Shown piece after piece: positions 8,438 to 31,960 of a stretch of DNA of 64,000 nt. A program made the position numbers and the translations under genes. Within the stretch, counting starts at the first letter, position 1. Every line of letters begins with the position of its first letter. The DNA lies in assembly GCA_027923505.1 (NCBI GenBank), contig BROI01000005.1:558001-622000 (forward strand). Reading direction: 5' to 3'. The notes under the pieces are model-generated. The model was given only the letters and a program-made list of their open reading frames with translations, ran no database searches and was not told the origin of the DNA. The stretch comes from Mayamaea pseudoterrestris (taxonomy: Eukaryota).

Positions 8438-8838
8438 TGTCACAATGACGATCTAGTCCAGTCGCTTGACGCGAACCTAGACGTCGCCGGGGGCGAACGA
8501 GCATAGTACTCGAACCTCTGTTGCGGTACCAGAAAAGACATCTACTCACAACTACGTCATTGAAATATTGCATGTGTGCCAGCCGCAGGCACGATTAAAC
8601 AAGATTAGTATTCACTATCGTGAATGGTCTTGAAAGAGCCATCTGATCAATTGCTCTTTCTCGACCGATCGTAAATCAACTCACTTTCTAGAGAACTGCT
8701 TAATCAACTAGCGTTTTGTAGGATAAGACCCCTGTAGGATAAACCAAGGTAAAGGACTGATCATCCCGCTCACTTGGAAACCGACTACAGAGGGTGAGGA
8801 ATCGTTGCAGCCGTACGAACTGGAACTGCATTGTGTCA
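8438..8838 (+). repeat. 5' LTR of element C
   Basis: Direct repeat of 15121-15521 with 4 substitutions. Confidence 0.97.
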
Positions 8839-9087
8839 GATCACACAGTCTTGGTCTTTACAATCAACTCTCTCGGGCGCTGGTGACGACCACTCCCGTC
8901 GTTTCGTTGCACACTACATTGGCAGCGGACATCCCTCGTTCATTTCCTGTCCGAGGCTTCAATCTACACTAGTCCGGCAGACGGAGGGATTGAAGACCGA
9001 GTCGAATTGCAAGCATCGCTCGGATAGAATCGACTTCCTCAATTATTCTCGCGGTATATATTCATCCCGTACCAATCAATCAACAAC

Positions 9088-13800: not shown

Positions 13801-15189
13801 ACGGCCTACGCACAAGCGGAGCACGATTCCACGAGCGGCTCGCGGACGCGCTACGAGCGGAAGGCTTCAAAGCCTCGTACGCCGATCCAGACGTTTGGAT
13901 TCGCGATGCTGGCCATTGTTACGAATACATCTGCACTTACGTCGACGACCTTATGGCAATCATGATTGACCCGGGCGCATTCTACGACATTCTTCGCAAC
14001 AAGTACAAGTTCAAGCTCAAGGGCGTCGGATGCCCAGAGTACCATCTAGGCGGCGACTTCGGACGCGACCCTGACGGAACACTATTCTGGGGCACCAAGA
14101 CCTACATCACCAAGCTTCTAGCCAACTACGAGCGTACATTCAACGGACCACCACAGACAGCGTAAAGCTCTCCACTCGACTCTCACGACCACCCGAACTC
14201 GACCAGACGTCCCTGTTAGGGCGGACTCAAGATCTACCAATCGTTTGTCGGAGCCCTTCAGTGGGCGATCACCCTTGGCCGTTCGATATCTGCAGTGCCA
14301 CCGCCCCTGCCTGTCACGCGGACAGCCTCGCATTGGACACCTCGACCGAGTCAAGCGTGTATGCGGCTACCTTCGCAAGTTTCCCGAGGCAGCCATCCGC
14401 TTTCGCACCCAGTGGCCGCAGAACGAAATCATCTTCGGCGACTCACCAACCTATGACTGGCAACAAACCGTCTACGACAACCCCAAGGAAGAGGTCCTTT
14501 CACTCTGGCCAAAACCAAAGGGCAAGACAGTTCGCCTTACTACCCTCAAAGATGCCAACCTGATGCATTGCAAAGTCACCGGCAAAGCATGCACTGGAAT
14601 CCTTCACTTCATTCAGCAGACTCCGTTCAAGTGGTTTGCCAAACTTCAAGATACCGTCGAACACGCGACCTTTGGCTCTGAACTCATGAGCGGGCGCGTT
14701 GCAACCGACCATATCCTAGGCATACGCGCGTCACTCATGGCAATGGGTGTTCCCATCGAGTCCTCTTCATGGCTACTCGGTGATAACCAATCAGTCATCA
14801 CGCAGTGTACAGTGCCTACATCCACACTCACCAAGCGCCACAATGCCCTCGCATATCACCGTATCCGATGGTGTGTAGCAGCCGGAATTATCAAGTTCGT
14901 CAAGATTGCCGGCAAGGAAAACGCTTCCGACGCGCTTACCAAGTACCTACCCTACATCGACGCATGGCCCCTACTCAAACCATTACTGTTCTGGCGTGGC
15001 GAAACCTTGGATCCTGGAGAACTCGAATTCTACCTTATGGACCCGTCACTGCCTCAAGGGGAGCCGACTCCAGGGGAGCTCATTGAGCTTACACCTGTCC
15101 TGGCACACCTACAAGGGGAGTGTCACAATGACGATCTAGTCCAGTCGCTTGACGCGAACCTAGACGTCGCCGGGGGCGAACGAGCATAG
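10893..15189 (+). pseudogene. Pol of element C (degraded protease, integrase, RT, RNase H; frameshifts near 14160-14300)
   Basis: VAMDTLFS, LISDGAKEE and SEPENQQQNPAE (integrase); HKARMVAGGH, KALYGLRTSG and TYVDDL (RT); LLGDNQSV and NASDALTK (RNase H). The stop codon lies inside the 3' LTR. Confidence 0.9.
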
Positions 15190-15521
15190 TACTCGAACCT
15201 CCGTTGCGGTACCAGAAAAGACATCTACTCACAACTACGTCATTGAAATATTGCATGTGTGCCAGCCGCAGGCACGATTAAACAAGATTAGTATTCACTA
15301 TCGTGAATGGTCTTGAAAGAGCCATCTGATCAATCGCTCTTTCTCGACCGATCGTAAATCAACTCACTTTCTAGAGAACTGCTTAATCAACTAGCGTTTT
15401 GTAGGATAAGACCCCTGTAGGATAAACCAAGGTAAAGGACTGATCACCCCGCTCACTTGGAAACCGACTACAGAGGGTGAGGAATCGTTGCAGCCGTACG
15501 AACTGGAACTGCATCGTGTCA
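15121..15521 (+). repeat. 3' LTR of element C
   Basis: Direct repeat of 8438-8838, preceded by the PPT. Confidence 0.97.
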
Positions 15522-15539
15522 GACGTTGACGGGTATGAC

Positions 15540-15563: not shown

Positions 15564-17804
15564 AACTCTTCCAGCTTCTCCTACAAGGAGTCAAATGGAA
15601 ATGATCAAGGAACCGGTTACCAACATTGTCGTCGGAAGCGTCAAACTTCGCTCATGCATGAAGACCCACCTCAAGTATTCTGGGCAGTCAGTCACCAACT
15701 CCATGGCAAATGGAGGCTGCAATGGTGCTTCCAGTGGTTTGCAGGCTAGCACTCCCATTGATGACATGCAAGCGAAAAGCCACATCCACCAGGTCAACAC
15801 CAAAGAAAGTGCCAAGGAGTCCGAGGAACTTGATTCCTACCAATTTGATTCCTCTCAAGCGCCCATTGACAATGGCATTCCTTATCCAGCTCTGGGTCCT
15901 TTGGTTGAACCGTCGCAAGCTACCAATATCAAGCCCAAGACGGTAACATTCGGAGGGCAAGATGTGCGATGATTTGTACAAGTTGCTGGTGAATTTATTG
16001 CTTTCAAACACTTGGAAAAGTACCAGGAAAAGTACCGGTATTTTGTTGAGAAGGGCATGCATAAGAATGCCTTGTCACAAAACCTTGTAGCTTACAGCGG
16101 AGGCGTCCGGTACGTACAATACATCAACGAAAACAGCCATTTGTATGTTATGGCATGCCAAAAGGACAAGAAACCTTTTGCAGAGAAGATTTACAACAAT
16201 TTGGTGAACTTTGGTTTTGTGTTCATCAAGCAAATCGATTCTGATTATGAATTCCTTGTTAACACTGATGGTATTATTGTGGTTATGGCGCATCTACGCC
16301 AGTACGAGCATGTGCAGATTGCGGAGGACAATAGTAACAGTAAGCAAGATTAAACTATGAGTGGAAGTTGGAGGTTGGGTGGGTACATGATTGTTTTGAT
16401 TTGCAGTGGGTCTACCAAACCATTCTTTGCCGCAAACAGAGTAAAGTATTACACGAGAATAGTGAGCACCTGGAATCACATAGCAATAGTTTATTTGTGT
16501 CTTTATATGAAGTACAGTAGCTGCTTGAATTGGTGAAGAGCTGCAACTCATCGAGGACGAGAAGCTGCTGCCGTAGTACATAATCTGACCATGTCAACGT
16601 TGGTAATGGCAAGACAGGAGAACAATGTGGTGCGCCTACCACAGAACGAGCATAATATTATTATGTAATACATATTCCATCATGTACACTTCCAAGCTCA
16701 CTTGCTATAATCATGCAGAATGGGAAATTGCATCCACTCAAGCTTGTGGTTACGATGCAAGCAGCAATACGTACTATGATATTCATCTACTGTTTGATCT
16801 ACTCGTTAAGGAATGTAAGGGAATAAGAACAATCAATGCCATCGACTACAGATAGACCAAACCAACCTGCTGCACTGCACATCATGGTTGTGCGCTAATG
16901 AGCTGATTGCGGTGAGGTTTGCAGCAGCCTATGATCGTCCAATCATCATCATTCCGGGCTGGCAGGGTATAGCACTTGGCACACAGATCCTTGTCTCCCC
17001 TTGCTGCAATTGGCCAATTCTGTTTGATGCATTTGGGCACCTGCAAATTACGAACAAAGGCGAAGGTGGTAGTGCTATTGTGGGGTTGGCACGGTATAAA
17101 CTGCCATGTCTTAGAAGAAATTTTGCATTTGCGGCAAGTCCTCTCGCAATCATTCTTGTCTTTTACAACTGGAGACTCAAGTTCAATCAACATCAGATTC
17201 TGCTCCTGCTCTCCCTGAGGGTGCGGCTGGGCTTGCTGCATGCCTGGCGCGCTTAATTTATGGGCACCATGCTGATTGCCTGATCTAGCTGCTGGCCTGG
17301 CCACTTGAAAAGTCTGCCCAGAGCAATGAGCAGTCCTGTCCATCGCTCCAGTTGCATTGGGAGCAGGCGCGGGTCCATTCAAGCCATTGACGTTTCTCCA
17401 GGCGCGCCATTGGTTGATGTACTTGAGACGTTTTGCTGTTTCTTTGCCAGGCAAACCATCGTCATTGACAGAATTGTCGTTTTCTGAGCATTCATCCCAG
17501 TTGATGGTAGAATCACTAATGTGGCCACTCGAATCATCCCAGTTGTTGGTGGAATCACCATCCTTGTCCTCCGAAGTGTTGTCATCATCGTCACTATCGT
17601 TATTGAAAACGGCGGCAGGTTTGTGAACCAACAACTGACCATCCGGCATGAACAACTGAGCATTTTTCCCAGCGAGAAAGGCAACATCAGTAGCAATTCC
17701 AGCTTCTGTGTCACGATGTAATGGTACAGCGTGGTGTTTGTACTCTAAGAGCCATACTAGTGACTGAAACAGTACTTATATACATGCAGTGGCAGTGTAT
17801 GGGC

Positions 17805-17851
17805 AACGTGAATGGTTCGCCGGTGCTCTGGTTCGATTCCGGGGTGCGTTA
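17805..17851 (+). ncRNA. tRNA-like RNA without anticodon arm in TRIM-1 5' LTR (putative self-encoded RT primer)
   Basis: AACGT pairs with GCGTT. T-arm GCTCTGG-TTCGATT-CCGGGGT. Exactly 12 nt between T-loop and discriminator A17851, TTTT at 17854-17857, TATA-like TTATATA about 25 nt upstream. Confidence 0.75.
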
Positions 17852-17892
17852 GCTTTTGCCTTTCTGCATGCGAGTACTGCTACGTCGTGTTA

Positions 17893-17906
17893 TGGTAACG
17901 TCACCC
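17893..17906 (+). other. Primer-binding site of TRIM-1
   Basis: TGGTAACGTCACCC directly abuts the 5' LTR; TGG is complementary to CCA. Confidence 0.85.
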
Positions 17907-18203
17907 GTCCAATGTCGGACCTGGTGTGATTGTGGTTCGAGTCTCGAAAAAGCAAAAATCGAGACCGCGTTGACTGGCAGCTGAGGTGTGTCCCTGCAAT
18001 GTCGCAGGGAACGTGTCATCGTTTGGGAGTAATGACTCCGGCGATAAGTGTCACACCGAAGCACGTAAACCCAGGGCGCGAGAGCATGACTCATAGAGTA
18101 AGGGGGATGTCACGATGTAATGGTACAGCGTGGTGTTTGTACTCTAAGAGCCATACTAGTGACTGAAACAGTACTTATATACATGCAGTGGCAGTGTATG
18201 GGC

Positions 18204-18250
18204 AACGTGAATGGTTCGCCGGTGCTCTGGTTCGATTCCGGGGTGCGTTA
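18204..18250 (+). ncRNA. Second copy of the tRNA-like RNA (TRIM-1 3' LTR)
   Basis: Identical to 17805-17851. Confidence 0.75.
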
Positions 18251-19809
18251 GCTTTTGCCCTTTGCATGCGAGTACTGCTACGTCGTGTTATTCTGCGAGC
18301 TGCCCTACAACATTGTTCAATAGTCGACGCTGGTTGTCCAAATTCTTGTCGCCTGGACTAGGAGCCTCGATGACTCCCCTATCCCCCAGTAGGTCACGCT
18401 GGCTAGCCAGCTGGAAAAGTGGGAGCATGTCAAAACCTGCTTTGTAGAATGTCAGCATAGCTTGAAGAATGCCTTCGATCTCAGCAAAATACTTCTTGCG
18501 CTCATCATCTTCCTCAGCAGCAATGGCTATCCATCACCACAACTCTCGCTTATACGGCGGCGTCATTCCAAGAAGCAGCCATTGGTACACAAAGAATAGC
18601 TGTCATCTTCTTCGACAGCTGTAGTGCGACGAGACTCGCAATCGCGGCACGACTGTTTCCATTGGTCATCATGTCCCAAAACATTCAAGACGTCTTCATC
18701 AATGTCCAAATACTCCTCGTAAGAGCTGTTGGAGTTGTCACCACCTTTTACTGGTACATGGACCGTACTTGTGGGGAATCTGTTCTCGAATGTGTTGGTG
18801 GTAGCTCCAGCCGCCAAAGTGGTTCCAGCAGCAGCTTCAATATTTTGAGCTCCAGCAGCAACATTGTCTGCAGCTGCTTTCTCAGCGTGAAGATGCCGCA
18901 ATTTTTTGATCCCATGTTCCTCCGCGTGGGGTGGAACTTCCGTCTGACCGCCAGCGTAATCCTCCTCCTCCTCTTCTTCGTCTTTGTCTTCTTCTTCTTC
19001 GTCTTCTTCTTCTTCGTTGTCATCATCTTCTTCTTCCTCCACAGTGGCAGGAAGGAAAGCAGTAGGAGCATTGCTGTTAGCGCGAGCTGCAGCTGGCACC
19101 GTTGTGCTGGCGCGAGCTTCTGCAGATGCTGTCGCGTCGGCGCGAGCTGCAGCTGGCACTAGAGAACTGTCGGGAGGCATAGGAGACTCATCAGGGATGG
19201 CATCCATGGTAGTAGTATTATTAATCAAGTCTTTGTTACGGTGTCGGGTCGTCATGGTGAAGTAGTAACAGTAACTAGGCGCATGTGGTGTGCGGTGACT
19301 CATGGCGAAGTGTGGAAGCGACAAGTTGGGTGGACGCCGCCCGGGTACCGGTACAAGTACCGAGCGTCAGTCATTGCAATTTGACGATCGAATATTATCA
19401 ATATAGGATACCTTTTGAGAATCACCCAACGTCAAGAATTCAATCGTGAAGGATGGCTTTCGTGACTCAATGGTTTTCGATCACAGTGCGCCTTTTGAGT
19501 CGACCAGCATGTTGTATTATTTTCGTCCGTGACGAGGAAAATTCAACACGTCGCTTTAGCCGTTGCCTTTACCATTTAGAGTGACCATCTACGTGGTTCC
19601 CCTGCATTAATTTTGGGTGTCACAACCCTTAAATAGTGTATGGTAGCATTCACAATGATGCAATGACAAGATGAAGAGCGACATGAGGAGAAATACAAGC
19701 CAGCGCAGTGCATGTTGCCACAAATATTGCCCACTATTAAGCTTATACGTTAATGATCACAATTCCTTTCACTTGCGAGCATGCGCCACCCACTACGGCT
19801 CCTTTCCTC

Positions 19810-21349
19810 TCAACCAACAACGCTGCTGCAGGAAGCATCCTTCATGATTTCAAAGCACCCGTTACACAATGCATGCAAGCATGCACTCACAGTGTCAGCA
19901 GCATCTTTGCAGACATGAACTGGTGCTCCTTGCTTCATCGTCATAAAAAGCAATGAAGTACATTTTGCGCATGACCTTGCTGCTCCGGGTGTTTTAGCAA
20001 GCCAACCAGGATTAAAGTGTGTAATATCAGTCTCCAATTTATAACAATCAGGGTCTTTATGACCACAGTCATTCTGTTCAGGGCTAGTAGGCCCTTCAAT
20101 GAACATGTCTTGGGACTTGTGCTTGGGAGCAGATGTGGGTGCTGTGGCAGCTTGGTGTTCTAGTTGGACTGGTGTGACCGCACCAGCAGCTACTTGATTT
20201 GGTGATGGTGTTGTCAAAGCTTCCAAATGGTTGTGGCCTCAAAAGTTTAGCAAGATGAAGCACATGTTAGTACTTGGAAATCTCGTAAATGCATTGTCAA
20301 TGCACACATAACGTTACATACCTGTCTGGTCCCTCTCCAATCTTGACGTAGTATTCACTGCTGGATCTAGCAGGTGGGGGGAATGGTGAGAGCTGCAGAG
20401 CCATAATTTTTTTGGAAGGTAATGGTGCCAAAAACTTACGCATGGCTTGCAGCGCTGACTCACTAATAAAGCCATGCTCCACAAAACCTTGGAAAAATCC
20501 ATAGGAGATTTCGCCTCTCTGCAGCCCCTCAAGAACATATTCCTCCAAACGAGCAGACACCGCAGCAGTAATTCCTGGCCTTACAGCGCTTGGTTCTACT
20601 GGTCCATTAGCGACTTTCCTTTTCTTTGACTCAAGCTTTGCTGCTGCCTTTTCTTCTGTCAAAGTTACAAGGACACCTTTAACTGAGCGACTGCCATCAT
20701 TAAAAGATATTTTTGTGTAGCTTTGACCCACGACAGTGCGCGTATTGCTGCCAATAAAACATGCGTGATGTTTTGAAGAAATCACCTGCAATTCCTTCAC
20801 CAACTCAGCTCGCTTAGCGCTAACTTTCATTTTAATACTTTCTCCGGGATGATTGCGAAACTTGGCTGCCAGTCGCTCATTGAGTTTCCCTTCGGTTGGC
20901 GACATGTACTCAGCATGGAAATGGTCCAGAATCTTCCGCTCAACCTTCAAGTCCCATGTCTTCGCATTCTCCCCTTCAAAAGGTGAATGCTGAATGAACA
21001 GCATGGCTTTTTGTGTTTCCTCGCAGTACATTGGAGACTTGTTGGCATAAATAGTTTTGATGTCAATCCAATCGACTGGAAAGTGGCCGTTGCGCAGCAT
21101 TGATGGGTGCCTCCTAGCCTCTGTCACCACGACTCGCACAAACTCATTGCGAGTAATTTCGTAAATTGTCTTGACCATGTCTTCTAGCTCCTTTTTATAT
21201 GCTTGAATAATTTCATCAGTAGGATGAATGTTGTTGCGCGGTGGAGCACCTTGTTGGAACTCAAAGACCAGCCTGGCATGTTCTAAGGTCACCTTGCCTT
21301 TTGGAAAGAAGGGTCCAGGTATCTTCCAAATTGGTTGTTCTGACATCAT
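19810..21349 (-). CDS. Hypothetical protein, probably two exons, with a C-terminal Cys/His zinc-finger-like motif (possibly degenerate)
   Basis: 350-aa ORF 20297-21349 with a GTATGT donor near 20321. ORF 19810-20226 contains CAKC...HVC...CLHALCNGC. Confidence 0.45.
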
Positions 21350-21715
21350 AGGCTTCCCTCTTAGATTGTAGTAAATGGGTTTTTTATGTGGTTTTTACTG
21401 GAAGAGACTGCGCGTACATGCGATGGATGGCACGAGCAATGCGACGATCGATCGATTCGATCGATCGATTGACGCCTCGTAAAGTAACGCGTGTGGTGTT
21501 GTCGCAACATCCGAGTCAGCACGCTAGTGAAAAGGTGACCGGCGCGCAATGAACCATCATCTGTTGTCGCAGTGGCTGCATGCCATCAATGTCGTCAAAC
21601 ATGTCGTGATCTACGGTATCCTACCACCATGATGCATGATACCGTACTCGCAGCTTGTAAACGTCCCGTGTACCTAGCGGTATGCAGAAGATTGAGGCTG
21701 CTACGGAAAATTAAA

Positions 21716-22965
21716 CTATAAATATGCAATCGCTCCATTGAACCGAAAATCCACGATCTTCCAATTAAGCTCCCCACGCTCGGCATTGTACTCGCGCTGA
21801 AAGGCAGCCACATATGAATTGGCACGAACGTCGTCCTCGGCGCCTTCGATTATTTCTCCATCTTTTTTGCGTCGGGTACAGTTAATTTGCTGGCACATGA
21901 AATGCAGAATGATAATTGGCGACCCCTTTTCGACTTCATCGGGCTGTGTAAATGGGTGGGTGGGTGAGTGTTAGCAAAATCATCGTCTTGATAAACACAG
22001 ACATCCAATTCTAAGCCGATTACCTCGCAAGCCAAAATTTCAGAGTTCATAATACCCAGTACATGCGTATCAACTTCCACTCCCTCCTTTTCCCGCGCCT
22101 TGATTTCTGCAGCTATACGCTTAAAGACCCCCTCACCGAGCCAAGGTTTGAGCTGATTGATGCGACCTTCGAGCAACCACTTCATCACGTTTGGTAGCGT
22201 ATGCTCCACGACATCTTCTCGCCAGTCTTCCAACGTAAATTCAGGATCAAGCTTTCGCAGTTCCTTGACTGCCAAACTCTCTGGAGTTTCCGCCGTTAGT
22301 GTATCATAGACACTGCTCACGCGATACACCCATGGATTTTGACTCGTTTCCCACGCCTCCTTGGCGTCTTCCTTAATATCATCGAGTCGCTCCTTGGCTT
22401 TCCGAGCACCGGATGTTTCATAGACTCTTTCCGTTCGTTGTAAAACTTGCGCAATGATTGGCGCGTCCGTCAAACGCTTTTGCATGCGCTCCCAAGCAGT
22501 CAAGTGTTCCGACGGGTCAATCACCATCAGTTCGCCAACTGGACCAGTGTACGGAGCATCACCTTCCGCGGTAGCGACTGGATGAATCTTCTTGTTAATG
22601 TCCTTTCGTTTGCCACTGTTCAATAGGTCTGTCCAAGCGAGACTGACTTCGGCCTTGAAAGCGTCGAAATATTGAGCAAGTTGGGGAAGTAAATTGTCAA
22701 ACTGAATGCTGGAATTGCTAGATGATGCACCAGAACTCGCGGCTGACTCCTCTTCCTTTTTGTCTTGCTGTATGCGGTTCACAGTATCCTTGAGTGACTT
22801 TTTCGTGGCAGGTTCGTCGGAGCTGGTGTTGCTACCGGTAGTCGAATGCCATCGAAAGGATGAAGCTGCAGCTAAATGAGACTCTTGATAAGCTCGCCGC
22901 CATGTACCACTCCTTTGCACAGTTCGCACATGACTAATTCCTTGCAAAGTTATTGCTCGCATCAT
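21716..22965 (-). CDS. TIM44: Mitochondrial import inner membrane translocase subunit Tim44
   Basis: Mitochondrial presequence; WETSQNPWVYR, LRKLDPEFTLEDW, LHFMCQQINC. Intron 21944-22023 (GT-AG). Confidence 0.88.
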
Positions 22966-23242
22966 ATTGTCGTACACAACGAATAAACAATGAATGAAGA
23001 GTTGCTTGCAAGCCTTGCTTCGGTCGTTCTTGGTGCGCGTTTCGATGGATGGCGCGCGTCCGTTTGTCTCGCAAAAGCACTTACGGTTCAGGATGACGGT
23101 ACGATATGCGTTCTCGATCCGAACCCTTCGCCATTGTGAGAAGGCAACGTTGCAAGCAATCTCGTTGCGAAGCCCGGCCATGTATCACTTGTATCATATC
23201 ATAAAAGCAAAAACGACCATCGCTTCGATAAAATCAAGCACC

Positions 23243-23707
23243 ATGCTTTCTCATATGAGCATTGCCGTCAAACACAGCCAGCGAACGCTACTGCCGTACA
23301 CTAGGACGCTGCCCAAGGCTGCTTTCTATTCGCCGACGCCCAAAGAGTTCGTCCCCGAGGAGGGCTACTACCATGGCCACTTGATTACGGAAAACCTTGA
23401 GTACTTGAACGACGTGATTGACAAGAGCGTTGAGCTTCAAGAAACTGTGCGTACAGTGAAGGACTCGCATGCGGCTGCAGTGGAATCAAACAAGACGCTC
23501 AAAGCGGAAGATGTGAGGCGCCTCTTGGCCCTGGCGCGCAAACGTAACGATGAAATTGCAACGCAGATCGGAATTCTGCAAAACATTTTGGACGACAACA
23601 GAACCTTTGCAGTAGATGCTCCCGATGGTATACCGGACTGGTATGTCATTGAAGAGTTGGAAAAGGTGCAAGAGATTCTCAAGAGTAATGACGGTACGGT
23701 CAAGTAA
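23243..23707 (+). CDS. Hypothetical protein, possibly mitochondrial (FAVDAPDG motif)
   Basis: Clean ORF divergent from TIM44 with a presequence-like N-terminus. Confidence 0.6.
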   Translation: MLSHMSIAVKHSQRTLLPYTRTLPKAAFYSPTPKEFVPEEGYYHGHLITENLEYLNDVIDKSVELQETVRTVKDSHAAAVESNKTLKAEDVRRLLALARKRNDEIATQIGILQNILDDNRTFAVDAPDGIPDWYVIEELEKVQEILKSNDGTVK

Positions 23708-24168
23708 GCCTGCTGATAGTTCTGCTACATTAAACGAAACGATTAATATTGACTGTATCTATTCATATGGACGCTCCATCTACTTTTAGTTTACGTCGTC
23801 ATAATGATACAGTTCGCAGATATGTTTTTAGATTCGGCAAATTTCTTGTCTGATAGCCGAAAATGCGCACCTGGTCCACACCCGAAAGCATTTAAGATAG
23901 AGTCTATGGGACCCATGCTTTCTTCCGAGCGTCCTTCCTTCCGTATTTCTAGCAATTTTTGAAGCTGCTTTTGCATCTAGGTAACGGTCTTCTATTGGCG
24001 CGTGATTGACTCCAAACAGAGGCAAGTACGTCGTAGCTAAACTCAACGGCGGGTCTTGTTTCGGTCACGCTTGCGACCGGCTGGCTCGCAGGGCGGTCAC
24101 ACTTTTTGTTCACTGATCCAAAATTTGCTGCCGAATGAATGCCGAGTGACGACGAAGATCTCGACCCG

Positions 24169-24402
24169 TAAAAGAAACCTGCTAGCTGAAGTGCAAGTTA
24201 GGTGTCAATCAAGCTCGCCAGGGAGTAGACGCTGGAGAGTCCTTTAGTTGTAGCAATAAGCTCACAATTTTAGATTTGAGTTGCTTTCAAACAAGTTGTC
24301 GTCGAGCGTAAGTGCGGGACTTTGATTCCAAGAGTCATAGGCTGCCGCCAGGGGACTAAACTAAAGTCCTCGGGTAGCTCGTCACCAGATAGACTTCTTT
24401 GA
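24169..24402 (+). repeat. 5' LTR of element D
   Basis: Direct repeat of 31727-31960. Confidence 0.97.
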
Positions 24403-24414
24403 GGTTATGAGCCC
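24403..24414 (+). other. PBS of element D, complementary to the anticodon arm of initiator tRNA-Met
   Basis: GGTTATGAGCCC is the reverse complement of GGGCTCATAACC, the half-tRNAiMet priming mode known from copia and Ty5. Confidence 0.88.
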
Positions 24415-24909
24415 AAACAGCTATCGCGAACCTTGACAAAACCTGATTGTCAAGCTTAACAAGAGAAGATGCATTCCATACGAAGAAGCAACCGGGCGTA
24501 ACAAGAACTTTCGCGAATTTTTGTCACCATCCGATCGTCTGGATTAAGCCCCTCGCCAAGGGTAATATGGCCCGTGTCAAGCGTCACTGATCCTGTACAG
24601 TCTAACAGACAGTACCAAGCAAGCAGTCGCGTCAACACTTTGATTACTGAGCGAGTCCCTTAAGTGGAAACTTTCGCCAAAAGTGTCAATGCCTCCCAAT
24701 TATTGCAAGTTGGTCATTTAAGAAGGCTGCCTAAAATAGGCTTAAATAAGAAATTTCGAGTATCCAACGGAAGAAAATTCCTGGCGTGCTCGCCCACGGT
24801 TTGTCGAGTTGCCACCATGAGGCAAACGAAACCAAAACAAGCAAGCAAACAGCAAGCGTTTTAACCAAGTTAACAAGCAGCAATCAACCACCCTACCGTT
24901 ACCATCAAG

Positions 24910-25629
24910 ATGTCCAAGTCCACCGAAGCGTTGGAGAGGGAGCTCAAGGAGCTAGCGAAGCTTGTAGCGCAGCTACAGAAGGAGAAGGAGGACGGCGCCT
25001 CAACGGCAATGACTTACCAGGAGCTCAAGCAGTTGGCCCGCAGCAAGGCGCAAGAGTTGGCGAAGGACTGGAATCTTACTAGTCGCACTGGAGCTGCATT
25101 CCAAGCCAGTACACCTGGAGAGACGCAGTTTCGCCTCGGCAATAACCAAGGCCGAGGAGGCGGCAATGGAAACCGGAGCAATGCTAATAACCATCCTGCA
25201 CCGGCAGAAGGCGGATCCGAGCGGCAGACCTTTGCCGGAACAGAGAAGCTTTACTGTCGACGATGCCGACGCTGGTTGCCTGTGTCCAGTAACAAGGCAC
25301 ATGTAACGGCCGATCACCGCAGCAATCCAAACAACGGTGGCGGCAATAGCAGCAACAATGGCAATGGCTCTGGTGGATCCAGTCGCGGCCGCTCCCAGTC
25401 GCGCGAGCGGAATAACAGCGGCAATGCCAATGGTGGCGGGGGCGGTAACAACAACGGAAACAGTAACGGCGGCAGAGGCAATGGAGGCAGAAGGCGCCGC
25501 AACAGGAACAATGGTGGGCGCGGTGGCCAGGGCGGCAATAATCAAAGCGCCCAGCAACCGACCCAGTCGACAACCACGTCGAGCGGTTACCTCTCTAGCT
25601 TCTCCATGAATCTGTTCCCCGAAATGTGA
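24910..25629 (+). CDS. Short Gag-like protein of element D
   Basis: CRRC...H...H zinc-knuckle-like motif followed by a G/N/R-rich tail; first ORF after the PBS. Confidence 0.75.
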   Translation: MSKSTEALERELKELAKLVAQLQKEKEDGASTAMTYQELKQLARSKAQELAKDWNLTSRTGAAFQASTPGETQFRLGNNQGRGGGNGNRSNANNHPAPAEGGSERQTFAGTEKLYCRRCRRWLPVSSNKAHVTADHRSNPNNGGGNSSNNGNGSGGSSRGRSQSRERNNSGNANGGGGGNNNGNSNGGRGNGGRRRRNRNNGGRGGQGGNNQSAQQPTQSTTTSSGYLSSFSMNLFPEM

Positions 25630-26676
25630 AGGTGTTGGACGCTACTCATGTTCTTTATTATGGTATTGAATCTGAGTGCGTCGGGTTTAAGATTTGCAAG
25701 TCTCACAAGTGTTCCAGCTCCTTACCAGGCAGCAGGCCAAGCTTTCGAGGCAGTTCTTCTTGGAGCCGGTCGATTTATCCTTGCTTTGGCAGCTCTTCTG
25801 AGCCAGTCCCCATGGTTGCAGTGTTTCTATCAAGTTGTTGCAAGTTTCAACCGCAATGGCTTGCTCCTGCTCCAGTGGATTGCCCATTGGACGAGTTGGA
25901 TGGCGTTTTACTTCATACGTCTCCTCGATTCAGCGCAAGTGGAAACCGCGTTCCTCGGTGTCCTTTCCAAGCTCCAAGAACCTTGTTACTATGTTCTCCA
26001 AGCACTGTGGTTCGTTCTCAAAATGAATCCGGTGTCCCAAATTCTAGGCAAGCTCCTCGAGTGGTTAGCTAAACCGTTCAGGATGCGAGCCGATGTGTCC
26101 CAGTGGACATCTCCACGCGTCTTTCCAAAGCGCTGGATGGTCCTCGATGCCGTCATGCTCTCTAATCATGCGGCCATGGAAGTGTCACAAAGATTGGTGC
26201 GCTACACACGATTCGTGCACCTATTCTGTCGATATCAAGTCCGTCTGTCCACATGCGTCTCTTCCTGAGTGCAAGGCGCAAGAAATGGAAGAAGGCGCAA
26301 GTTGCTATTCGAGAGGAAGCCAAGCTAGTCGGCGAGCAGCTTTAACGCAGCCAAGCAGATGCATGCTCGAGTTGCGCCAAAAGCCATGGAATTTGACGGC
26401 TAACATGCTTTGATCACCAAGATTTACCAAGTCTTTTGGAAGCGCAAGCGCAATGGTTAGCAATGCTCCCACCAGTGCCAAGCAAAGTCGGCGGACAACA
26501 GAAGCAAGATGAGGAAGCTGCACTAGACCCTCTCCAAGTCTGTTTCTTTGTGCCTGCCGAGCAAGAGTCTCTACCCCAGGAAGCTTTCTTTGATGCTGTT
26601 GGCGATATAACAGACATTGAAGACGTCTTCTTCGAGGTTGAGCAAATTCCCAGTCCTGTACCCAGTGATGATCCGT

Positions 26677-26820
26677 CCCCGCTCGCGTCCCTGACCGAGT
26701 CCAAGACCAAGATCAAGACCAAGGCCCTGCTCGTGTCCCTGACCGAGTCCAAGACCAAGTCCAAGTCCAAGGCCCCGCTCGTGTCCCTGACCGAGTGCAA
26801 GACCAAGTCCCAGTCCAAGT
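26677..26820 (+). repeat. 3 x 48-bp coding tandem repeat in element D
   Basis: Units start at 26677, 26725 and 26773 and encode variants of PLASLTESKTKIKTKA. Confidence 0.92.
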
Positions 26821-28875
26821 CCTATTCCCAATGCCAGGCTCTTATGCCGGCGCCAAGCAAGCTTCTCGAGGAGGTTCTCCACGGCCATGAAGGCGCATCA
26901 ACGATAGCTCAAGCTCTTCTCTCCACGGTTGATGAGTCCTTTAACTTGTCGCCGCCCTATCCAGGGAGCCTGTCGCCGCCTCTTCAATTGCGGTCATCAA
27001 GCTTGGGCAAGGAAGACTATAGCAATGCATTCAATGCTCACGTCTTTGACCCAGACTTTGTCATGGCGTTGCATTCGAGGCCAAGTGTTCAGGGCGGTCA
27101 GGAGGAGCTAATCTCCGTCGTCCTAGATACTGGTTGCTCCGTTGCTCTGACGTTTTGTGAGGATGATTTTGTTGAGTTGTCAAGGACCAAAGGCTTTATC
27201 AATACCGCTAATGGCAAGTCTGCTATCACGGGGCACGGCAAAGTGCGTTGGATGTTTATCACGGAGCAAGGCGAGAATGTGGAGGTCATTGTACCAGCGC
27301 ATTTGTGTCCTGCCTCCAACCAACGCCTGCTGTCGCCTCAAGGCTATGCTCTATACCACGGTTTAAGCCAAGATGAGATCCAATATGGCGGTTCACATTC
27401 ATTCTTCTTCATGAACCTGAAGGACCAAGATGGCAAGTTTCACAAGTTCCGTTGTCCCATTCATCCGCGCTCGAACCTTCCACTAGCGGTTGCCCGCTCA
27501 AGCGAGTCCTGCACGTGTGCCGAAGCCAATTGCACAAGTTGCTTCAGCCATGGCTACATTACTGTGGCTGAGGAGACAAACCAGAATCTAACTGGCAGTC
27601 AACGTGAGCTCCTACTGTGGCATCAGCGTCTCGCGCACCGAGCAATGAACTATGTTCAAGACTTGTTTATTCCGAAGGTCGAGCCCAGCTCCTTGCCTCC
27701 TGCTGAGCCACCGCCGGGTCCGTGTATCAAACCGACTCACAGCGGTGCTCGCACATGTCCTGCTCCTAAGTGTGCTGCCTGCCTACTAGCCAAGCAGCGG
27801 CGCAGGCGAGAGCTCAAGGAGTGCGCAATCTTGTTGATGGCGCTCTGATGGTGGATGATTTGCAGCCAGGTGACCCGTCTCTGTTGATCATCAGTCGTCA
27901 GTCTCGGTAGACGCCCGACGTCTCGAGGGCGGGAATCCACAGGAATGAAATTTTGCGGCGGTACCATTTACGTGACCATTGTTCCAGAGCTATCTTCTGT
28001 ATCCACCAAGTCAGTTTTGCGACGGCGATACCATCAAGGGCAAGCGGCTAGTTGAAAAATACTTTGACGAAGCCCTGCCTGGACTAAAGATCAAAGCCTT
28101 CCATGGCGACAATGGCATTTTCAACTCAGCCGAGTTTGAGGCCGACTTGTTGCGCCAAGGGCAGACGATTAAGTTCAGCGGTGTCGGTGCACATCATCAA
28201 AACGGTGTTGCAGAACGTTCCATTCAGATTGTGGTAGAGATGGCGAGAACGATGATGCAGCATGCTTCAATGCACTGGCCGTCGGAATTCGAGGAAAGTT
28301 TGTGGCCCTTCGCCATGGACTATGCCTGCTGGTTGTGGAACAACATGCCGTCCCGAGGAGGTTTAACACCTTTGGAAGTGATGTCCGGTGTCTCCGGTGG
28401 AGGTGCAAACCTTAGCCGTGCAAGAGTTTGGGGTTGTCCAACCTTCGTGTTAGATCCAAAGCTACAAGACAAAAAGAAGATCCCGAAATGGCGCCCACGC
28501 TCCAGGCGAGGCCAGTTTCTGGGCATGTCTACAGCTCATTCATCAACCGTTGGTCTCATCCGGAATCTGGTTACTCAGCACGTGTCGCCACAATTCCATG
28601 TGGTGTATGATGAGCTGTTCCAGACGGTGGCAAACCCTGGCTTTGACGACGCAGACCCACTATGGATCCGCCTGTTTCGGTCAAACCGAGAGCTTTACCT
28701 CGACATGGAGGAGCTCAAGGCAGACTTGTATCCAGCGCAGTTAAGAGAGGACTACTGGACTGAGGAAGATAGCAGGTTGCACACGAAAAACAGCAACCAG
28801 AGCGATACCTTTACTTGTCATAGTGCATGGTGCCTTGTATGCAGCATATAGTACACTAGCAGACGGAAAAGTAGC

Positions 28876-28931
28876 AGCGTGTTTAGAGGTGATATAGCCG
28901 GTTATCCTTGGTTCGATTCCGAGGTGCGCTA
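28876..28931 (+). ncRNA. tRNA-like RNA without anticodon arm in TRIM-2 5' LTR (putative self-encoded RT primer)
   Basis: AGCGT pairs with GCGCT. T-arm CCTTGG-TTCGATT-CCGAGG. 12 nt to discriminator A28931, TTTT at 28933-28936, upstream ATATAG TATA-like element. Confidence 0.75.
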
Positions 28932-28975
28932 CTTTTAACGGCATAGTGATACTACTTTCTGTTGCATACCTGCTA

Positions 28976-28988
28976 TGGTAGCGTCCCT
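28976..28988 (+). other. Primer-binding site of TRIM-2
   Basis: TGGTAGCGTCCCT abuts the 5' LTR. Confidence 0.85.
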
Positions 28989-29345
28989 ATCGAGAGATCT
29001 GGACTGAGGCTGCTGGTTCGAGTTGCGATCGAATCAAGCGAAGAAAAAGCAAAAATTCACTGGTTGCACGGGTTTGTCACGAACGAACGATGGGGAGTCG
29101 CGGACCCTGGGGAGTGCACAAAGATGCGCCGAGCCCGAAACGCCGCAGGAAAAACTGAAAAGTGACATTCCCCCGCGAGACGAAAATGCCAGCTGAAACG
29201 GAAGACGAGTTAGCACTATGACGCGCAAAGCTAGGGGAGTAGCAGGTTGCACACGAAAAACAGCAACCAGAGCGATACCTTTACTTGTCATAGTGCATGG
29301 TGCCTTGTATGCAGCATATAGTACACTAGCAGACGGAAAAGTAGC

Positions 29346-29401
29346 AGCGTGTTTAGAGGTGATATAGCCGGTTATCCTTGGTTCGATTCCGAGGTGCGCT
29401 A
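29346..29401 (+). ncRNA. Second copy of the tRNA-like RNA (TRIM-2 3' LTR)
   Basis: Identical to 28876-28931. Confidence 0.75.
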
Positions 29402-31726
29402 CTTTTAACGGCATAGTGATACTACTTTCTGTTGCATACCTGCTAAAGAAGCTGAGTTTCACCGCAGAGACAAGAGCACAAGTGCAGAAGCTACCGACGA
29501 GTTGTATACCGACGTTGACGTTGTGCCGAGCCAAGAGCCAGCCCCAGAGGGCGGCCAGCCAACTGAAGCACCAACTGATGCGCCAGCTCACGGTTTAGCT
29601 AATGTACAAGCTCCTATTGCCGTTGACTTCGTCCCTGACGAGGAAGTTGACGAAGAACCCGAGCAAGAGGACGAGTCTGCAGAGGCTCCTTCCTTGCAAC
29701 CAAGTGCCGATCCACAGTCTGACGAAGAGACTGTCCTAGCCAACAACCAGTCACTGCACCGCCGTTCCAAGAGGAAGACCAAAGGTCAGCGCAAACAATT
29801 GCGGTTTGACGAAGAGTTCCATCTTGCAGAGCGCGCCGTCTTGACGGAAGAAGGTTGGGTGATCCGAGCCAAGAACTCCAAAAGGGTTGGTGCGATTGTG
29901 TATCCCATAGAGAAGGACGATATTATAGGCCAACGCATGGATTGGACTGCCTCAGCAAGTTCTGGTTCATTAGCGGCGCTCTTCACTGAATATGAGCGAC
30001 TGTACACCGATCCTTACTCAATGGAGATTGACGATTCACATCCGTTCTCGTATGCCGCCAAGGTCGCCGACGCAGATTCTCCTACTTACCGGGACATTTG
30101 CCGAGCAGACGAGGAAAGCCAAGCCAAGTGGATGACTGCTATGCAGGGCGAAATGGACGCGCTCTTTAGCAAAGGAACGTTTGAGTGGATTCACAAATCA
30201 AAAGTTCCCAAGGGCAAGCAAGTCATTCCAACAACCTGGGTCTTCAAAGTGAAGCGAGCCGTCGACATGAGTATTCGCAAGTTCAAAGCGAGATTCTGTG
30301 TCAGAGGCGACCGCCAAGATCTTAAAGATGAAGATGGCGCTGAGCCAAGCGTTTACGCTCCCGTTGTCCAATGGTCCACCATAAGACTGATGTTTAACCT
30401 GATGATTGCTCACAAGCTCAAGTCGACCCAGATTGATTTCCGCAATGCTTTCGTTCAGTCTGATTTGCCAGAGCCGATTTACATCCAAGCTCCAGCGGGT
30501 TTGAATGACCCTAGCAAGAAGGATCACGTTCTTAAGGTCTTGAAGAGTTTGTATGGCGACAGGCGCGCACCCCAGTTATGGTTCAAGCATTTGTGCAAAG
30601 GATTGGAGATGCAAGGATTCAAGCCGTCTCAGCACGATCCGTGTCTCTTTATCCGCCACGATTGCGTCTTCTTTGTTCATGTTGATGACGGTTGCTTTGT
30701 CTCCAAGTCGCAGAAAGTGATTGACAAGTGCATCGAACAACTGATCAAGGATGGCTATGATTTGGATCCCGAGCGCGGCGATTTAGCTGGTTTTCTAGGC
30801 ATCAAGATTGAGGAGGAGAAGGACAGCCAAGGCAAAAGCAATGGCAACCTCGTCCTTACTCAAAACTCACTCATTGAGCGCATCCTTAAAGTGCTCAAGC
30901 TTTCTGATTCTAAAAAGACCAAGCTCATCCCCGCAGCCGAAGCCTTAAAGGCATGCAAGGAGTGTCCGGCCCACGACGAAGATTGGAATTACAGATCCGT
31001 CGAAGGCATGATGCTCTATCTAGCGCAGAATACAAGACCAGACATTGCAATGGCGGTTCACCAAGCGGCACGATTTGCTAACGATCCACGCGACGTGCAT
31101 TCCAAGGCTCTCTTCTACATTGGTCAGTACCTACTAGCTACACGAACCAAGGGAATGATCCTGCGCCCGAACCGTAATTCAATGCATTTGGACATGTATT
31201 GTGACGCCGACTTTTCCGGTCTATTCAAAGTGGAAGACCGTGACGACCCAAGAAGCGCCCGCTCTCGAACTGGTTACATTATCACGTTAGGAGGAGCGCC
31301 AGTGCTCTGGGCAAGCAAGCTCCAGACGGAGATTGCGACTTCTACCTGCGAGGCCGAGTACATTGCGTTATCTACAGGAATGCGATCACTGCTACCAGCC
31401 CGCTGGATTTTACAAGAAGTTACTAGCATGTTGCAGTTGCCGTCAAAGCAGCGCTCTGTCATTTCAACCGTTTGGGAAGACAATGATGCAGCTTTGATTC
31501 TGGCCACAACAGACCCACCCAAGATCTCGTCACGAACCAAGCATTTCAATGTGAAATATCACTGGTTTAGGAGTCACCTTAAGAAGGGACAGATTGAGTG
31601 CAAGCGAGTCGATACCAAGGAGCAGTGGGCAGACATTATGACGAAGCCACTGGACCGTATCCGACTGGAAGCAATCCGTAAGAAGATCATGGGATGGTAA
31701 GACCTTGTTGCTCACTTGAGGAGGAG

Positions 31727-31960
31727 TAAAAGAAACCTGCTAGCTGAAGTGCAAGTTAGGTGTCAATCAAGCTCGCCAGGGAGTAGACGCTGGAGAGTCC
31801 TTTAGTTGTAGCAATAAGCTCACAATTTTAGATTTGAGTTGCTTTCAAACAAGTTGTCGTCGAGCGTAAGTGCGGGACTTTGATTCCAAGAGTCATAGGC
31901 TGCCGCCAGGGGACTAAACTAAAGTCCTCGGGTAGCTCGTCACCAGATAGACTTCTTTGA
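31727..31960 (+). repeat. 3' LTR of element D
   Basis: Direct repeat of 24169-24402. Confidence 0.97.

Follow-up and report, generated by a model that had tools for sequence, protein, structure and literature searches.

In the 64,000-nucleotide stretch of Mayamaea pseudoterrestris DNA analysed here (the window), two miniature LTR retroelements, TRIM-A and TRIM-B, carry in each LTR a tRNA-like module whose 3' end, once extended by CCA, is complementary to the first 8 bases of the element's own primer-binding site (PBS). We tentatively read TRIM-A and TRIM-B as two related non-autonomous, copia-dependent miniature LTR families of the Helenus/TRIMp3 kind in a diatom, whose primer is most likely a host initiator-like tRNA. 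The module-PBS complementarity is the new element; it is thin, with five templated bases in two related families, and it hints at an own primer without showing one. By the accepted view, LTR retroelements take host tRNAs as primers, and the Tf1 group uses its own 5' end instead. The features discussed below are the following (window positions).

17704..17708 and 18291-18295, unstranded: TRIM-A duplicated target (TSD) TTCTG, 5 bp (sequence; 5 letters common at the joint)
17709..18290, + strand: TRIM-A, complete element, 582 bp, low copy (direct repeats, sequence, empty-site joint)
17709..17892, + strand: TRIM-A 5' LTR (direct repeats)
17805..17851, + strand, second copy at 18204-18250: tRNA-like module A, position 1 to discriminator, 47 nt, 61.2 bits each
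17854-17857 and 18253-18256: TTTT behind module A
17893..17902, + strand: TRIM-A PBS core TGGTAACGTC, abutting the LTR
17932..17959, + strand: TRIM-A internal blocks common with TRIM-B (a second B-box-like decamer and a 14-nt A-rich block)
18095..18107, + strand: TRIM-A purine-rich tract (PPT), read from the sequence
18108-18290: TRIM-A 3' LTR (direct repeats)
24168..31960, + strand: Ty1/copia element D, into which TRIM-B has inserted, not part of the TRIM (LTR pair; RVT_2 and integrase-region Pfam matches)
28766..28769 and 29446-29449, unstranded: TRIM-B duplicated target AAGA, 4 bp (joint with 4 common letters)
28770..29445, + strand: TRIM-B in full, 676 bp, high copy, inside the copia element
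28770..28975, + strand: TRIM-B 5' LTR (direct repeats)
28876..28931, + strand, second copy at 29346-29401: tRNA-like module B, 56 nt, 80.4 bits each
28933-28936 and 29403-29406: TTTT behind module B
28976..28987, + strand: TRIM-B PBS TGGTAGCGTCCC, identical over 12 nt in a second TRIM-B subfamily (run contigs)
29013..29056, + strand: TRIM-B internal blocks common with TRIM-A (sequence comparison)
29227..29239, + strand: TRIM-B PPT, read from the sequence
29240-29445: TRIM-B 3' LTR (direct repeats)

Both elements are TRIMs by their anatomy, with short direct LTRs, a non-coding interior (215 nt in TRIM-A and 264 nt in TRIM-B, neither with an ORF of at least 250 aa) and a total length under ~1 kb; in both, a PBS adjoins the 5' LTR, a purine tract precedes the 3' LTR and a TSD (5 and 4 bp) flanks the whole. 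The LTRs of TRIM-A (184 and 183 nt) are separated by one substitution and a one-base indel, and those of TRIM-B (206 nt each) show no difference over the 205 nt compared. Contigs of public sequencing runs contain the empty sites: for TRIM-A a joint 17703->18291 (587 positions skipped, 5 letters common) in 2 of 4 runs, X1 and X2, and for TRIM-B a joint 28765->29446 (680 skipped, 4 letters common) in all four. TSDs and empty sites show that both elements are mobile, and the TRIM identity assigned to them in the preliminary description holds with slightly corrected bounds. Summed depth in the run contigs is just ~2-3x that of the flanks for TRIM-A; over 28908-29318 of TRIM-B it is ~100-fold that of flanking genes, a ratio that is not a copy number. 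The run contigs also contain the second TRIM-B subfamily (loose ends behind 28986, X1-X4), and TRIM-B looks like a family with many copies and recent activity.

The module resembles an internally deleted tRNA of ~50 nt, made up of a B box, T arm, acceptor helix and discriminator A, then TTTT. What is left of the tRNA comprises both acceptor strands (5' and 3'), a remainder of the 3' strand of the anticodon stem, the full T arm and discriminator A; missing are the D arm and one half of the anticodon arm. The 19-nt module core GGTTCGATTCCGRGGTGCG occurs four times in the window, always in a TRIM-A or TRIM-B LTR (0.01 expected), and GGTTCGATTCC (box B, GGTTC type) is present as a perfect B box in 4/4 LTRs. 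The T loop, TTCGATT, is of the elongator type. In both families exactly 12 nt lie between T loop and discriminator, and TTTT stands 1-2 nt past discriminator A; together with the T stem and acceptor pairing, these features bear out the earlier description of a tRNA top half with 12-nt spacing. For box A (TRGCY ... YGG), weak look-alikes were picked out by eye, with no formal scan, at ~17789-17809 and 28871-28889, and the conserved GCARCGTG block could be box A or acceptor strand. From this arrangement we infer that the module may be an RNA polymerase III unit. Finding no further T4 runs is within chance (P 0.40 and 0.67), and run contigs at single-copy depth show module variants in which the B box or the terminator is broken. 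A functional tRNA gene was rejected, the 47/56-nt module having no recognised cloverleaf: ARAGORN reports 0 tRNA genes across the window, and Rfam gives no tRNA-family match to the module even at E<=10. The module's fold energies are no better than those of shuffled sequences (z -0.6 to -1.9), and the acceptor helix is absent from the minimum-energy fold of module A.

Comparison of the two families sets the module apart. LTR sequence beyond it shows no significant likeness between TRIM-A and TRIM-B (z 0.4 and 1.0) versus z 8.7 for the module block, as expected from the earlier remark that otherwise dissimilar LTRs share one module, and a second conserved island is formed by the first 10 PBS bases (z 5.5). 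The interiors are also related (z 4.7; common blocks of 10 and 14 nt), so TRIM-A and TRIM-B are one lineage rather than two independent cases. By this alignment conservation has held in the module, in PBS bases 1-10 and in the two internal blocks, while other LTR sequence diverged beyond alignment. The three-way concerted change described earlier, in both module strands and the PBS, is present: TRIM-A has 17806 A, 17849 T and 17898 A where TRIM-B has 28877 G, 28929 C and 28981 G, at module position 2, module position 71 and PBS base 6. The T stem holds a further compensatory pair at 50:64 (columns 33-47), C-G in TRIM-A and T-A in TRIM-B. The tRNA-like helix is kept in 23/24 cells with 2 two-sided changes, and the two compensatory changes preserve it; pair statistics are powerless with 2 distinct sequences, 129/500 shuffles equalling them.

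The PBS begins TGGTAACG in TRIM-A (17893) and TGGTAGCG in TRIM-B (28976), and differs from the PBS of either autonomous copia element of the window. That the module 3' end plus CCA is complementary to it, as first proposed, proves correct for 8 bases in each family (five templated, 3 from CCA), with one concerted change and with the match stopping exactly at the discriminator in both. Duplexes of the CCA-tailed module end with the PBS have energies of -21.9 and -22.9 kcal/mol, compared with -10.9 and -10.7 kcal/mol (sd 2.8) for shuffled PBSs, the real values being equalled by fractions of 0.0015 and 0.0005 of 2000 shuffles; untailed duplexes of the module 3' strand with the PBS region reach -25.1 and -21.3 kcal/mol. 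The motif TGGTARCG is not rare, with 5 occurrences in the window vs 2.56 expected. PBS bases 9-10 are TC in TRIM-A, TRIM-B and the second TRIM-B subfamily, whereas the module predicts CA, and past base 8 the match is background, an unrelated LTR-B position scoring 12/15 vs 11/15 for the module end. PBS bases 1-3 (TGG) oppose the post-discriminator GCT in TRIM-A or CTT in TRIM-B, leaving a contiguous templated match of 5; since TGG lacks a templated partner, a CCA-tailed RNA is required. In the TRIM-B interior a 12-bp helix with the module T arm is possible (P=0.034 vs shuffles), and none was seen in TRIM-A (P=0.60).

In the reading that we tentatively favour, each LTR carries an internally deleted tRNA gene with TTTT directly after it, which as an RNA polymerase III unit might start or end the TRIM transcript, yield a small tRNA-shaped RNA, or both, while a copia-type partner would supply the proteins. 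Minus-strand synthesis would begin at the PBS on a CCA-ended RNA with CG(C/T)TA as its last templated bases; the likeliest candidate is a host tRNA whose acceptor end is of the initiator type (A1:U72/A73), ...GACG(C/T)TA-CCA. The module end would equal the primer end by descent from that tRNA (e.g. through strong-stop DNA or a SINE) or by mimicry, and the PBS change tracking the module would be coincidence or reflect two host isodecoders. A PBS conserved over 10-12 nt suits a primer that, unlike the module, has GA at 67-68; the TC at PBS 9-10 suits a tRNA ending ...GACG(C/T)TA-CCA better than it suits the module, and the matches past base 8 are no better than background. A copia element in the window is primed on an initiator-type anticodon loop (GGTTATGAGCCC at 24403), so that initiator tRNA does serve as a primer in this genome, and the yeast Ty1 PBS for initiator tRNA likewise opens with TGGTAGCG. 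The host candidate is putative, as ARAGORN finds no tRNA in the window. However, PBS base 6 differs exactly opposite module position 71, which one tRNA cannot explain: TRIM-A requires U71 and TRIM-B C71, so that a single host tRNA would leave an A-C mismatch, and a second one with the end ...CGTTA-CCA would be unusual, A1:U72 being seldom found beyond initiators. Descent from an initiator would also require extra changes, given the elongator-type T loop; the initiator T loop has A54/A60, unlike TTCGATT. Moreover, module and primer never coincide in the >200 Helenus families described by Kojima 2024 (PMC10886601), so a coincidence here would be uncommon a priori.

The alternative put forward in the preliminary description, possible but on balance doubtful, is that polymerase III transcribes the LTR module; RNase P and RNase Z or exonucleases would trim the RNA and the CCA-adding enzyme would tail it, giving a 50-60-nt tRNA top half that pairs with the PBS of its own TRIM (8 Watson-Crick pairs and a G-U, then a small internal loop and 3-4 further pairs) and primes the minus strand. 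Module and PBS would then co-evolve as a private primer-template pair, free of the host tRNA pool and of the partner's primer choice, a proposition that we likewise consider rather unlikely. In its favour are the end of the 8-nt match precisely at the discriminator in both families, the stability of the tailed duplexes against the shuffled ones, the concerted shift of positions 2, 71 and PBS base 6, and a PBS unlike those of the window's copia elements. The two compensatory changes hold acceptor and T helices that a mere promoter would not need, and TTTT follows the discriminator as in real tRNA genes, although it would hinder a full-length polymerase III transcript. By the title of Lauermann and Boeke's 1994 work, the primer sequence is reportedly not inherited. 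Together with a Ty1 PBS of two segments separated by a small internal loop, as outlined in a Ty3 review, this means that a conserved mismatch loop is not fatal to such a primer. Against it, no more than five templated bases match, in two mutually related families; PBS bases 9-10 are conserved yet mismatched to the module, and their TC is the pattern that the preliminary description had named as refuting if a host tRNA ...GACGCTA or ...GACGTTA exists. The tRNA is recognised by neither ARAGORN nor Rfam, the fold energies do not exceed those of shuffles, with no acceptor helix in the module A minimum, and the A box is weak at best. Module-PBS complementarity is, in addition, absent from every Helenus family covered by Kojima 2024 (PMC10886601).

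Improbable, in our judgement, is a non-priming module that acts as a mimic of the primer tRNA or by cis pairing with the PBS, a host tRNA still serving as primer. It might imitate the acceptor/T-arm half of the partner's primer tRNA and so serve export, stability or packaging of TRIM RNA into partner particles, or its 3' strand in U5 might pair with the PBS region of the genomic RNA in a regulatory U5-PBS helix. Structure-preserving module changes, the CCA-free duplexes and the TRIM-B interior helix are consistent with this, as are differences at module and PBS alike, expected if the families are tuned to different partners or primers; but the conserved TGG, lacking a templated partner, makes any cis pairing shorter than CCA-end pairing, the T-arm helix is missing from TRIM-A, and mimicry still requires two unseen host tRNAs. 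Least probable, and very much so, is a module with no role today, the inert remains of a tRNA or SINE fragment caught once in an ancestral LTR, with PBS match and concerted change arising by chance. The frequency of TGGTARCG, the weak fold z-scores, covariation statistics without power at 2 sequences and the single-copy-depth variants with broken B box or terminator would allow it; however, the module is the sole LTR part alignable between families, its terminator and helix are retained, which argues for selection, and the match lies at the one predicted spot, the discriminator.

To our knowledge, these diatom TRIMs are the first known case with the module-PBS complementarity that an own primer requires, and the question thereby becomes directly testable. 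A trans-acting, element-encoded tRNA mimic would, if true, be a third way of priming, by which a parasite of a parasite escapes reliance on host primers. The ordinary reading, too, would extend Helenus-type elements to stramenopiles, and TRIM-B would supply diatom genomes with tRNA-like polymerase III units and give rise there to false tRNA/SINE calls.

Among known systems, mascRNA/MALAT1-type mimics, plant viral tRNA-like CCA ends and the Mauriceville retroplasmid are tRNA-shaped and handled by RNase P/Z and the CCA-adding enzyme, and in the retroplasmid reverse transcription begins at the CCA end; we know of none that is LTR-borne with a product pairing with a PBS in trans. In Tf1 the initial 11 nt of the element's transcript, freed by RNase H cleavage, serve as primer, and CCA is not needed. 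If the module primes, the likeness is that the element itself supplies the PBS-complementary primer; Tf1-type self-priming was rejected for the TRIMs because the PBS TGG has no templated partner and only 5 contiguous templated bases match. Ty1/copia elements priming on the 3' end of initiator tRNA resemble the TRIMs in the PBS start TGGTAGCG, its shortness and possible contacts across an internal loop, and differ in having a host tRNA primer and LTRs without a tRNA-like module. [quoted passage not shown] Closest of all are the Helenus/TRIMp3 elements (Kojima 2024, PMC10886601), whose tRNA-derived LTR sequence leaves the earlier statement that no such element is known unsupported. In that account they are TRIMs of 311-1263 bp with a box-B tRNA-derived sequence in each LTR, TSDs of 4-5 bp and an interior bounded by PBS and PPT, mobilised by Copia or Gypsy partners, the tRNA-like part being mostly no functional tRNA; their PBSs match host tRNAs common to the autonomous partners, including the initiator tRNA 3' end, and the hosts in its Table 1 are fungi, animals and Selaginella only, with no diatoms or other stramenopiles. 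In Kojima 2024 (PMC10886601), the one known survey of TRIMs that bear tRNA sequence, the possibility of an own primer is explicitly considered and set aside for every family there for want of complementarity. Helenus modules, as portrayed there, approach the full length of a tRNA, have boxes A and B and show zero complementarity to the PBS, whereas the diatom module dispenses with the D arm and half the anticodon arm and matches its PBS over 8 bases (3 from CCA) in both families.

Both of the miniature LTR retrotransposons (TRIMs) proposed in the preliminary description exist, and each of their LTRs carries one copy of an internally deleted tRNA-like sequence, here called the module. The features concerned are the following.

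8438-15523: Ty1/copia element, full-length, with an RVT_2 match, LTRs of about 394 nt and the 5-bp target-site duplication (TSD) GACGT
17709-18290: TRIM-A, 582 bp, LTRs of 184 and 183 nt
17805-17851: module A, 47 nt, from the module alignment
24168-31960: Ty1/copia element hosting TRIM-B, LTRs of 235 nt, TSD ACCCG
26665-26832: array of 12-nt tandem repeats with higher-order units of 48 nt, in the gag-side ORF of the 24168-31960 copia element
28770-29445: TRIM-B, 676 bp, LTRs of 206 nt
28876-28931: module B, 56 nt, from the module alignment

The LTRs of TRIM-A are one substitution and one single-base indel apart and its TSD is TTCTG (5 bp); those of TRIM-B are without difference across the 205 nt compared, with a 4-bp duplication, AAGA. 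The primer-binding site (PBS) of TRIM-A starts with TGGTAACG immediately 3' of the 5' LTR, and that of TRIM-B is TGGTAGCG; a purine tract precedes the 3' LTR in TRIM-A and is also present in TRIM-B, which is inserted in the integrase region of its 7.8-kb host element (24168-31960). When contigs from four public sequencing runs (X1-X4) were compared with 17400-29700, an empty-site joint from 28765 to 29446 (680 nt skipped, 4 shared letters) was found in all four, corresponding exactly to TRIM-B plus one copy of its duplication; a joint from 17703 to 18291 (587 nt skipped, 5 shared letters), corresponding to TRIM-A and its duplication, was found in two of the four. Thus, both elements have moved. 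Summed contig depth (no measure of copy number) exceeds that of adjacent genes by about two orders for TRIM-B in all four runs and by just 2-3-fold for TRIM-A; we read this only as a sign of a large TRIM-B family and a small TRIM-A family. TRIM-B contigs also reach high summed depth in X4, where they are uninformative on RNA ends, levels or 50-nt RNA. A second TRIM-B subfamily with a different interior, seen as loose ends behind 28986 in contigs of all four runs, retains the identical 12-nt PBS.

The run contigs give several further observations. Contigs of X1 and X2 join 17701 to 18601 via 493 other letters and are 80-90% like the flanks; they probably stem from a paralogous or allelic locus that differs in content and lies at nearly the TRIM-A position. 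At 28951, one contig each in X1, X2 and X4 has the TRIM-B PBS and the last 25 or so LTR nucleotides below unrelated upstream sequence; these represent either a 5'-truncated copy within a gene that is transcribed or an element sharing this PBS but lacking a module at that distance, and they could bear on which elements use the TRIM-B PBS. Further copies of the 24168-31960 copia element occur without the TRIM-B insertion, and many indels lie near its tandem array, at 26248-26495. On the minus strand, 80 nt with GT..AG ends (21944-22023), skipped in one X4 contig only, are likely an intron of a Tim44-domain gene (ORF 21850-23181), and this one spliced contig suggests that X4 may be cDNA. The window is diatom DNA: for its sulfite-oxidase gene (34042-35886), the best named relatives, with 62-66% identity, come from Epithemia, Phaeodactylum, Amphora and Seminavis.

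The module amounts to the top half of a tRNA, as the preliminary description had read it, and is not a tRNA. Its core, GGTTCGATTCCGRGGTGCG, occurs in all four LTRs (4 matches in the window versus 0.01 expected) and includes a perfect B box; four of the five B-box matches in the window are those of these LTRs. From the 5' side the order is a 7-nt 5' strand, a variable middle with a common GCCGGT, a 5-bp T stem with the loop TTCGATT, the 3' T-stem strand, a 7-nt 3' acceptor strand and a discriminator A, with TTTT beginning 2 nt (module A) or 1 nt (module B) past the discriminator. The distance from T loop to discriminator, 12 nt in both families, matches tRNA positions 61-72, and the 12 proposed pairs are standard in 23 of 24 cells; shifting the partner by 1-3 columns leaves pairing at only 21-58%. 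The change at pair 2:71 (A-T in A, G-C in B), which the preliminary description had named and described exactly together with its counterpart in the PBS, is joined by a second two-sided change, at T-stem pair 50:64 (C-G in A, T-A in B), and one more pair differs on one side only, compatibly. With only two distinct sequences, 129 of 500 column shuffles equal the real modules in pair statistics. Fold energies are no better than those of shuffles (z -0.73, -0.64, -1.03 and -1.90), and the minimum-energy fold of module A favours a 9-bp T hairpin over the acceptor helix. ARAGORN calls no tRNA in the window, modules included, and Rfam gives no tRNA-family match in slices of 71-801 nt, even at E<=10.

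The relation of the module to the PBS is what sets these elements apart. Once CCA is added, PBS bases 1-8 of each family find their complement in the module 3' end, with module position 71 (T in A, C in B) opposite PBS base 6, which is A in TRIM-A and G in TRIM-B. Each LTR position was taken as a hypothetical 3' end, given CCA and matched to the PBS; the discriminator end yields an 8-nt contiguous match in both cognate LTRs, and the other ends among the five best by total matches yield 3-6. Duplexes of the 22-nt module end with the 20-nt PBS region reach -21.9 (A) and -22.9 (B) kcal/mol, compared with -10.9 and -10.7 kcal/mol (sd 2.8) for shuffled PBSs, and the fraction of 2000 shuffles that equal the real duplex is 0.0015 (A) and 0.0005 (B). 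Three of the eight pairs are supplied by CCA, leaving five templated bases, and TGGTARCG is not rare in the window (5 versus 2.56 expected). Past PBS base 8 the match is at background: 12/15 (A) and 11/15 (B) for the module ends, 12/15 for an unrelated LTR-B position. A second covariation, of PBS base 13 with position 64, fits the ungapped register and was not counted, since matches in that range are at background. For PBS bases 9-10 the module predicts CA, yet both families have TC; a G-U pair with the module is possible at base 9 and no pair at base 10. A conserved 10-12-nt PBS with the same two-base departure would be expected from a primer with GA at 67-68, and the RNA implied by the PBS would be related to the module, not identical to it. 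We therefore treat the complementarity as a lead and not a result, given five templated bases, two related families and a conserved mismatch.

The relatedness of the families follows from what they retain. As the preliminary description had it, the module is common to otherwise dissimilar LTRs: beyond it the TRIM-A and TRIM-B LTRs have no detectable likeness (z 0.4 upstream, 1.0 downstream), compared with z 8.7 for the module block, 5.5 for the first ten PBS bases and 4.7 for the interior, where a second B-box-like decamer, TGGTTCGAGT, and a 14-nt A-rich block are shared. Since the module, the PBS core, the two interior blocks and the purine tract alone are retained, TRIM-A and TRIM-B have a common ancestor, and these islands of conservation argue for selection on the module; by the same token, in a single lineage the "three-way covariation" is one event and not replicated evidence. 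The interior blocks lie at 17932-17959 and 29013-29056, about 40-70 nt past the PBS; the decamer is able to pair with a nearby TCGA-containing stretch in either family, and X4 contigs break with A runs at the TRIM-B blocks (loose ends 29044 and 29055).

Searches for further family members covered the window and several public collections. A covariance model built from the two modules finds only the four known copies in the window (next best 13.9 bits, E 0.34). Viral contigs gave no match to the module pattern or the interior-block pattern and no relatives of the copia RT protein. The module pattern matched 11 metagenome loci, none with the module acceptor strand and three inside ordinary tRNA genes, and one genome contig, from an actinobacterial MAG (801-825, minus strand). 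This last match covers the 22 nt of the module from T loop to discriminator; its T stem has GA, its position 71 is T, and after the discriminator come an encoded CCA and ATTTT. ARAGORN calls no tRNA at the site, and the match may be a tRNA 3' fragment, e.g. an integration-site remnant, or chance.

Our weighing of what primes these elements takes account of the case being chosen from a very large scan. The reading we put first, at somewhat under an even chance, is that a host tRNA would prime at the PBS and the module would be a polymerase III unit of the type found in Helenus, the known TRIMs with tRNA-derived LTR sequence. Host priming is the rule among all known relatives. At 24403, the copia element hosting TRIM-B has the PBS GGTTATGAGCCC, the complement of the anticodon loop of an initiator-type tRNA; this indicates priming by a half-tRNA, as in copia and Ty5, and so points to the initiator tRNA as a primer in this genome. 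The yeast Ty1 PBS for initiator tRNA likewise begins with TGGTAGCG. The A1:T72/A73 end of the module resembles the initiator, and a host RNA accounts better than the module for the TC conserved at PBS bases 9-10. Against this, two host tRNAs differing at 2:71 would be needed, or else TRIM-A would have an A-C mismatch. The full-length copia element at 8438-15523 has LTR ends (TGTCACAATG ... GTGTCA) and a purine tract similar to those of TRIM-A, a likeness by which a relative of it could be the TRIM-A partner; its PBS region (GATCACACAGTC...) has no TGG start and forms a short inverted repeat with the LTR end, which argues that this copia is not primed by a tRNA 3' end.

A possible reading, and on balance an unlikely one, is that a module-derived, CCA-tailed RNA primes its own element. 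The PBS match terminates exactly at the discriminator, the PBS change follows the module change, and a helix dispensable for a promoter is preserved by compensatory changes; the terminator is retained at the position of a real tRNA gene, yet would impede a full-length polymerase III transcript. A1:U72 is rare outside initiator tRNAs, and the module T loop is presumably unlike the initiator's, both of which we count for a private primer. The primer sequence is reportedly not inherited in Ty1 (so the title of Lauermann & Boeke 1994), and the argument that a PBS must be overwritten by its primer, which on this account may fail for copia-type elements, was dropped. An excerpt of a Ty3 review describes the Ty1 PBS as two segments with a small internal loop between; on these two grounds the persistent two-base mismatch is not decisive against the module. 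That the module is a mimic, or pairs in cis, without a priming role seems improbable to us, and that it is an inert relic with a PBS match by chance more improbable still. Two further candidate signs were rejected: the elements do not significantly avoid internal T4 runs, an avoidance that would have marked a polymerase III genomic RNA, and a Ty1-like extended contact of the module T arm with the interior appears in TRIM-B only (P=0.034; TRIM-A, P=0.60).

Full-text literature searches with the 10-nt PBS strings returned unrelated primers only; on host tRNAs, a P. tricornutum small-RNA paper yielded nothing of use in its supplements, and a diatom tRNA-identity paper covers tRNA-Arg only. In a literature that leaves most subscription journals outside, we found no paper on Helenus in diatoms and none on an LTR element that encodes a tRNA primer of its own. 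The latter agrees with the preliminary description, which knew of no element so primed; TRIMs with tRNA-bearing LTRs are nevertheless known, having been named Helenus by Kojima 2024 and grouped with the 5S-bearing Cassandra and Ajax as TRIMp3 (PMC10886601, in excerpt), and parts of a sugar-beet TRIM study cite them likewise. According to the same excerpts, Helenus ranges over rust and agaric fungi, six animal phyla and Selaginella, with no stramenopile in Table 1, and its PBSs match host tRNAs, in common with Copia (fungi) or Gypsy (animals) partners. LTR elements are able to capture primer-type tRNAs, as the abridged account of a Culex Gypsy element with CCA-bearing tRNA copies at the LTR/PBS boundary illustrates. 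The kind of element is thus known, and is new for diatoms. The excerpted Helenus paper considers the LTR tRNA-like sequence as a primer, finds no complementarity to the PBS and concludes that it has no part in initiation. The diatom TRIMs show module-PBS complementarity, whereas none was found in the Helenus families; as far as our searches show, this is unique among TRIMs of this kind, and it renders the hypothesis that such an element encodes its own primer testable.
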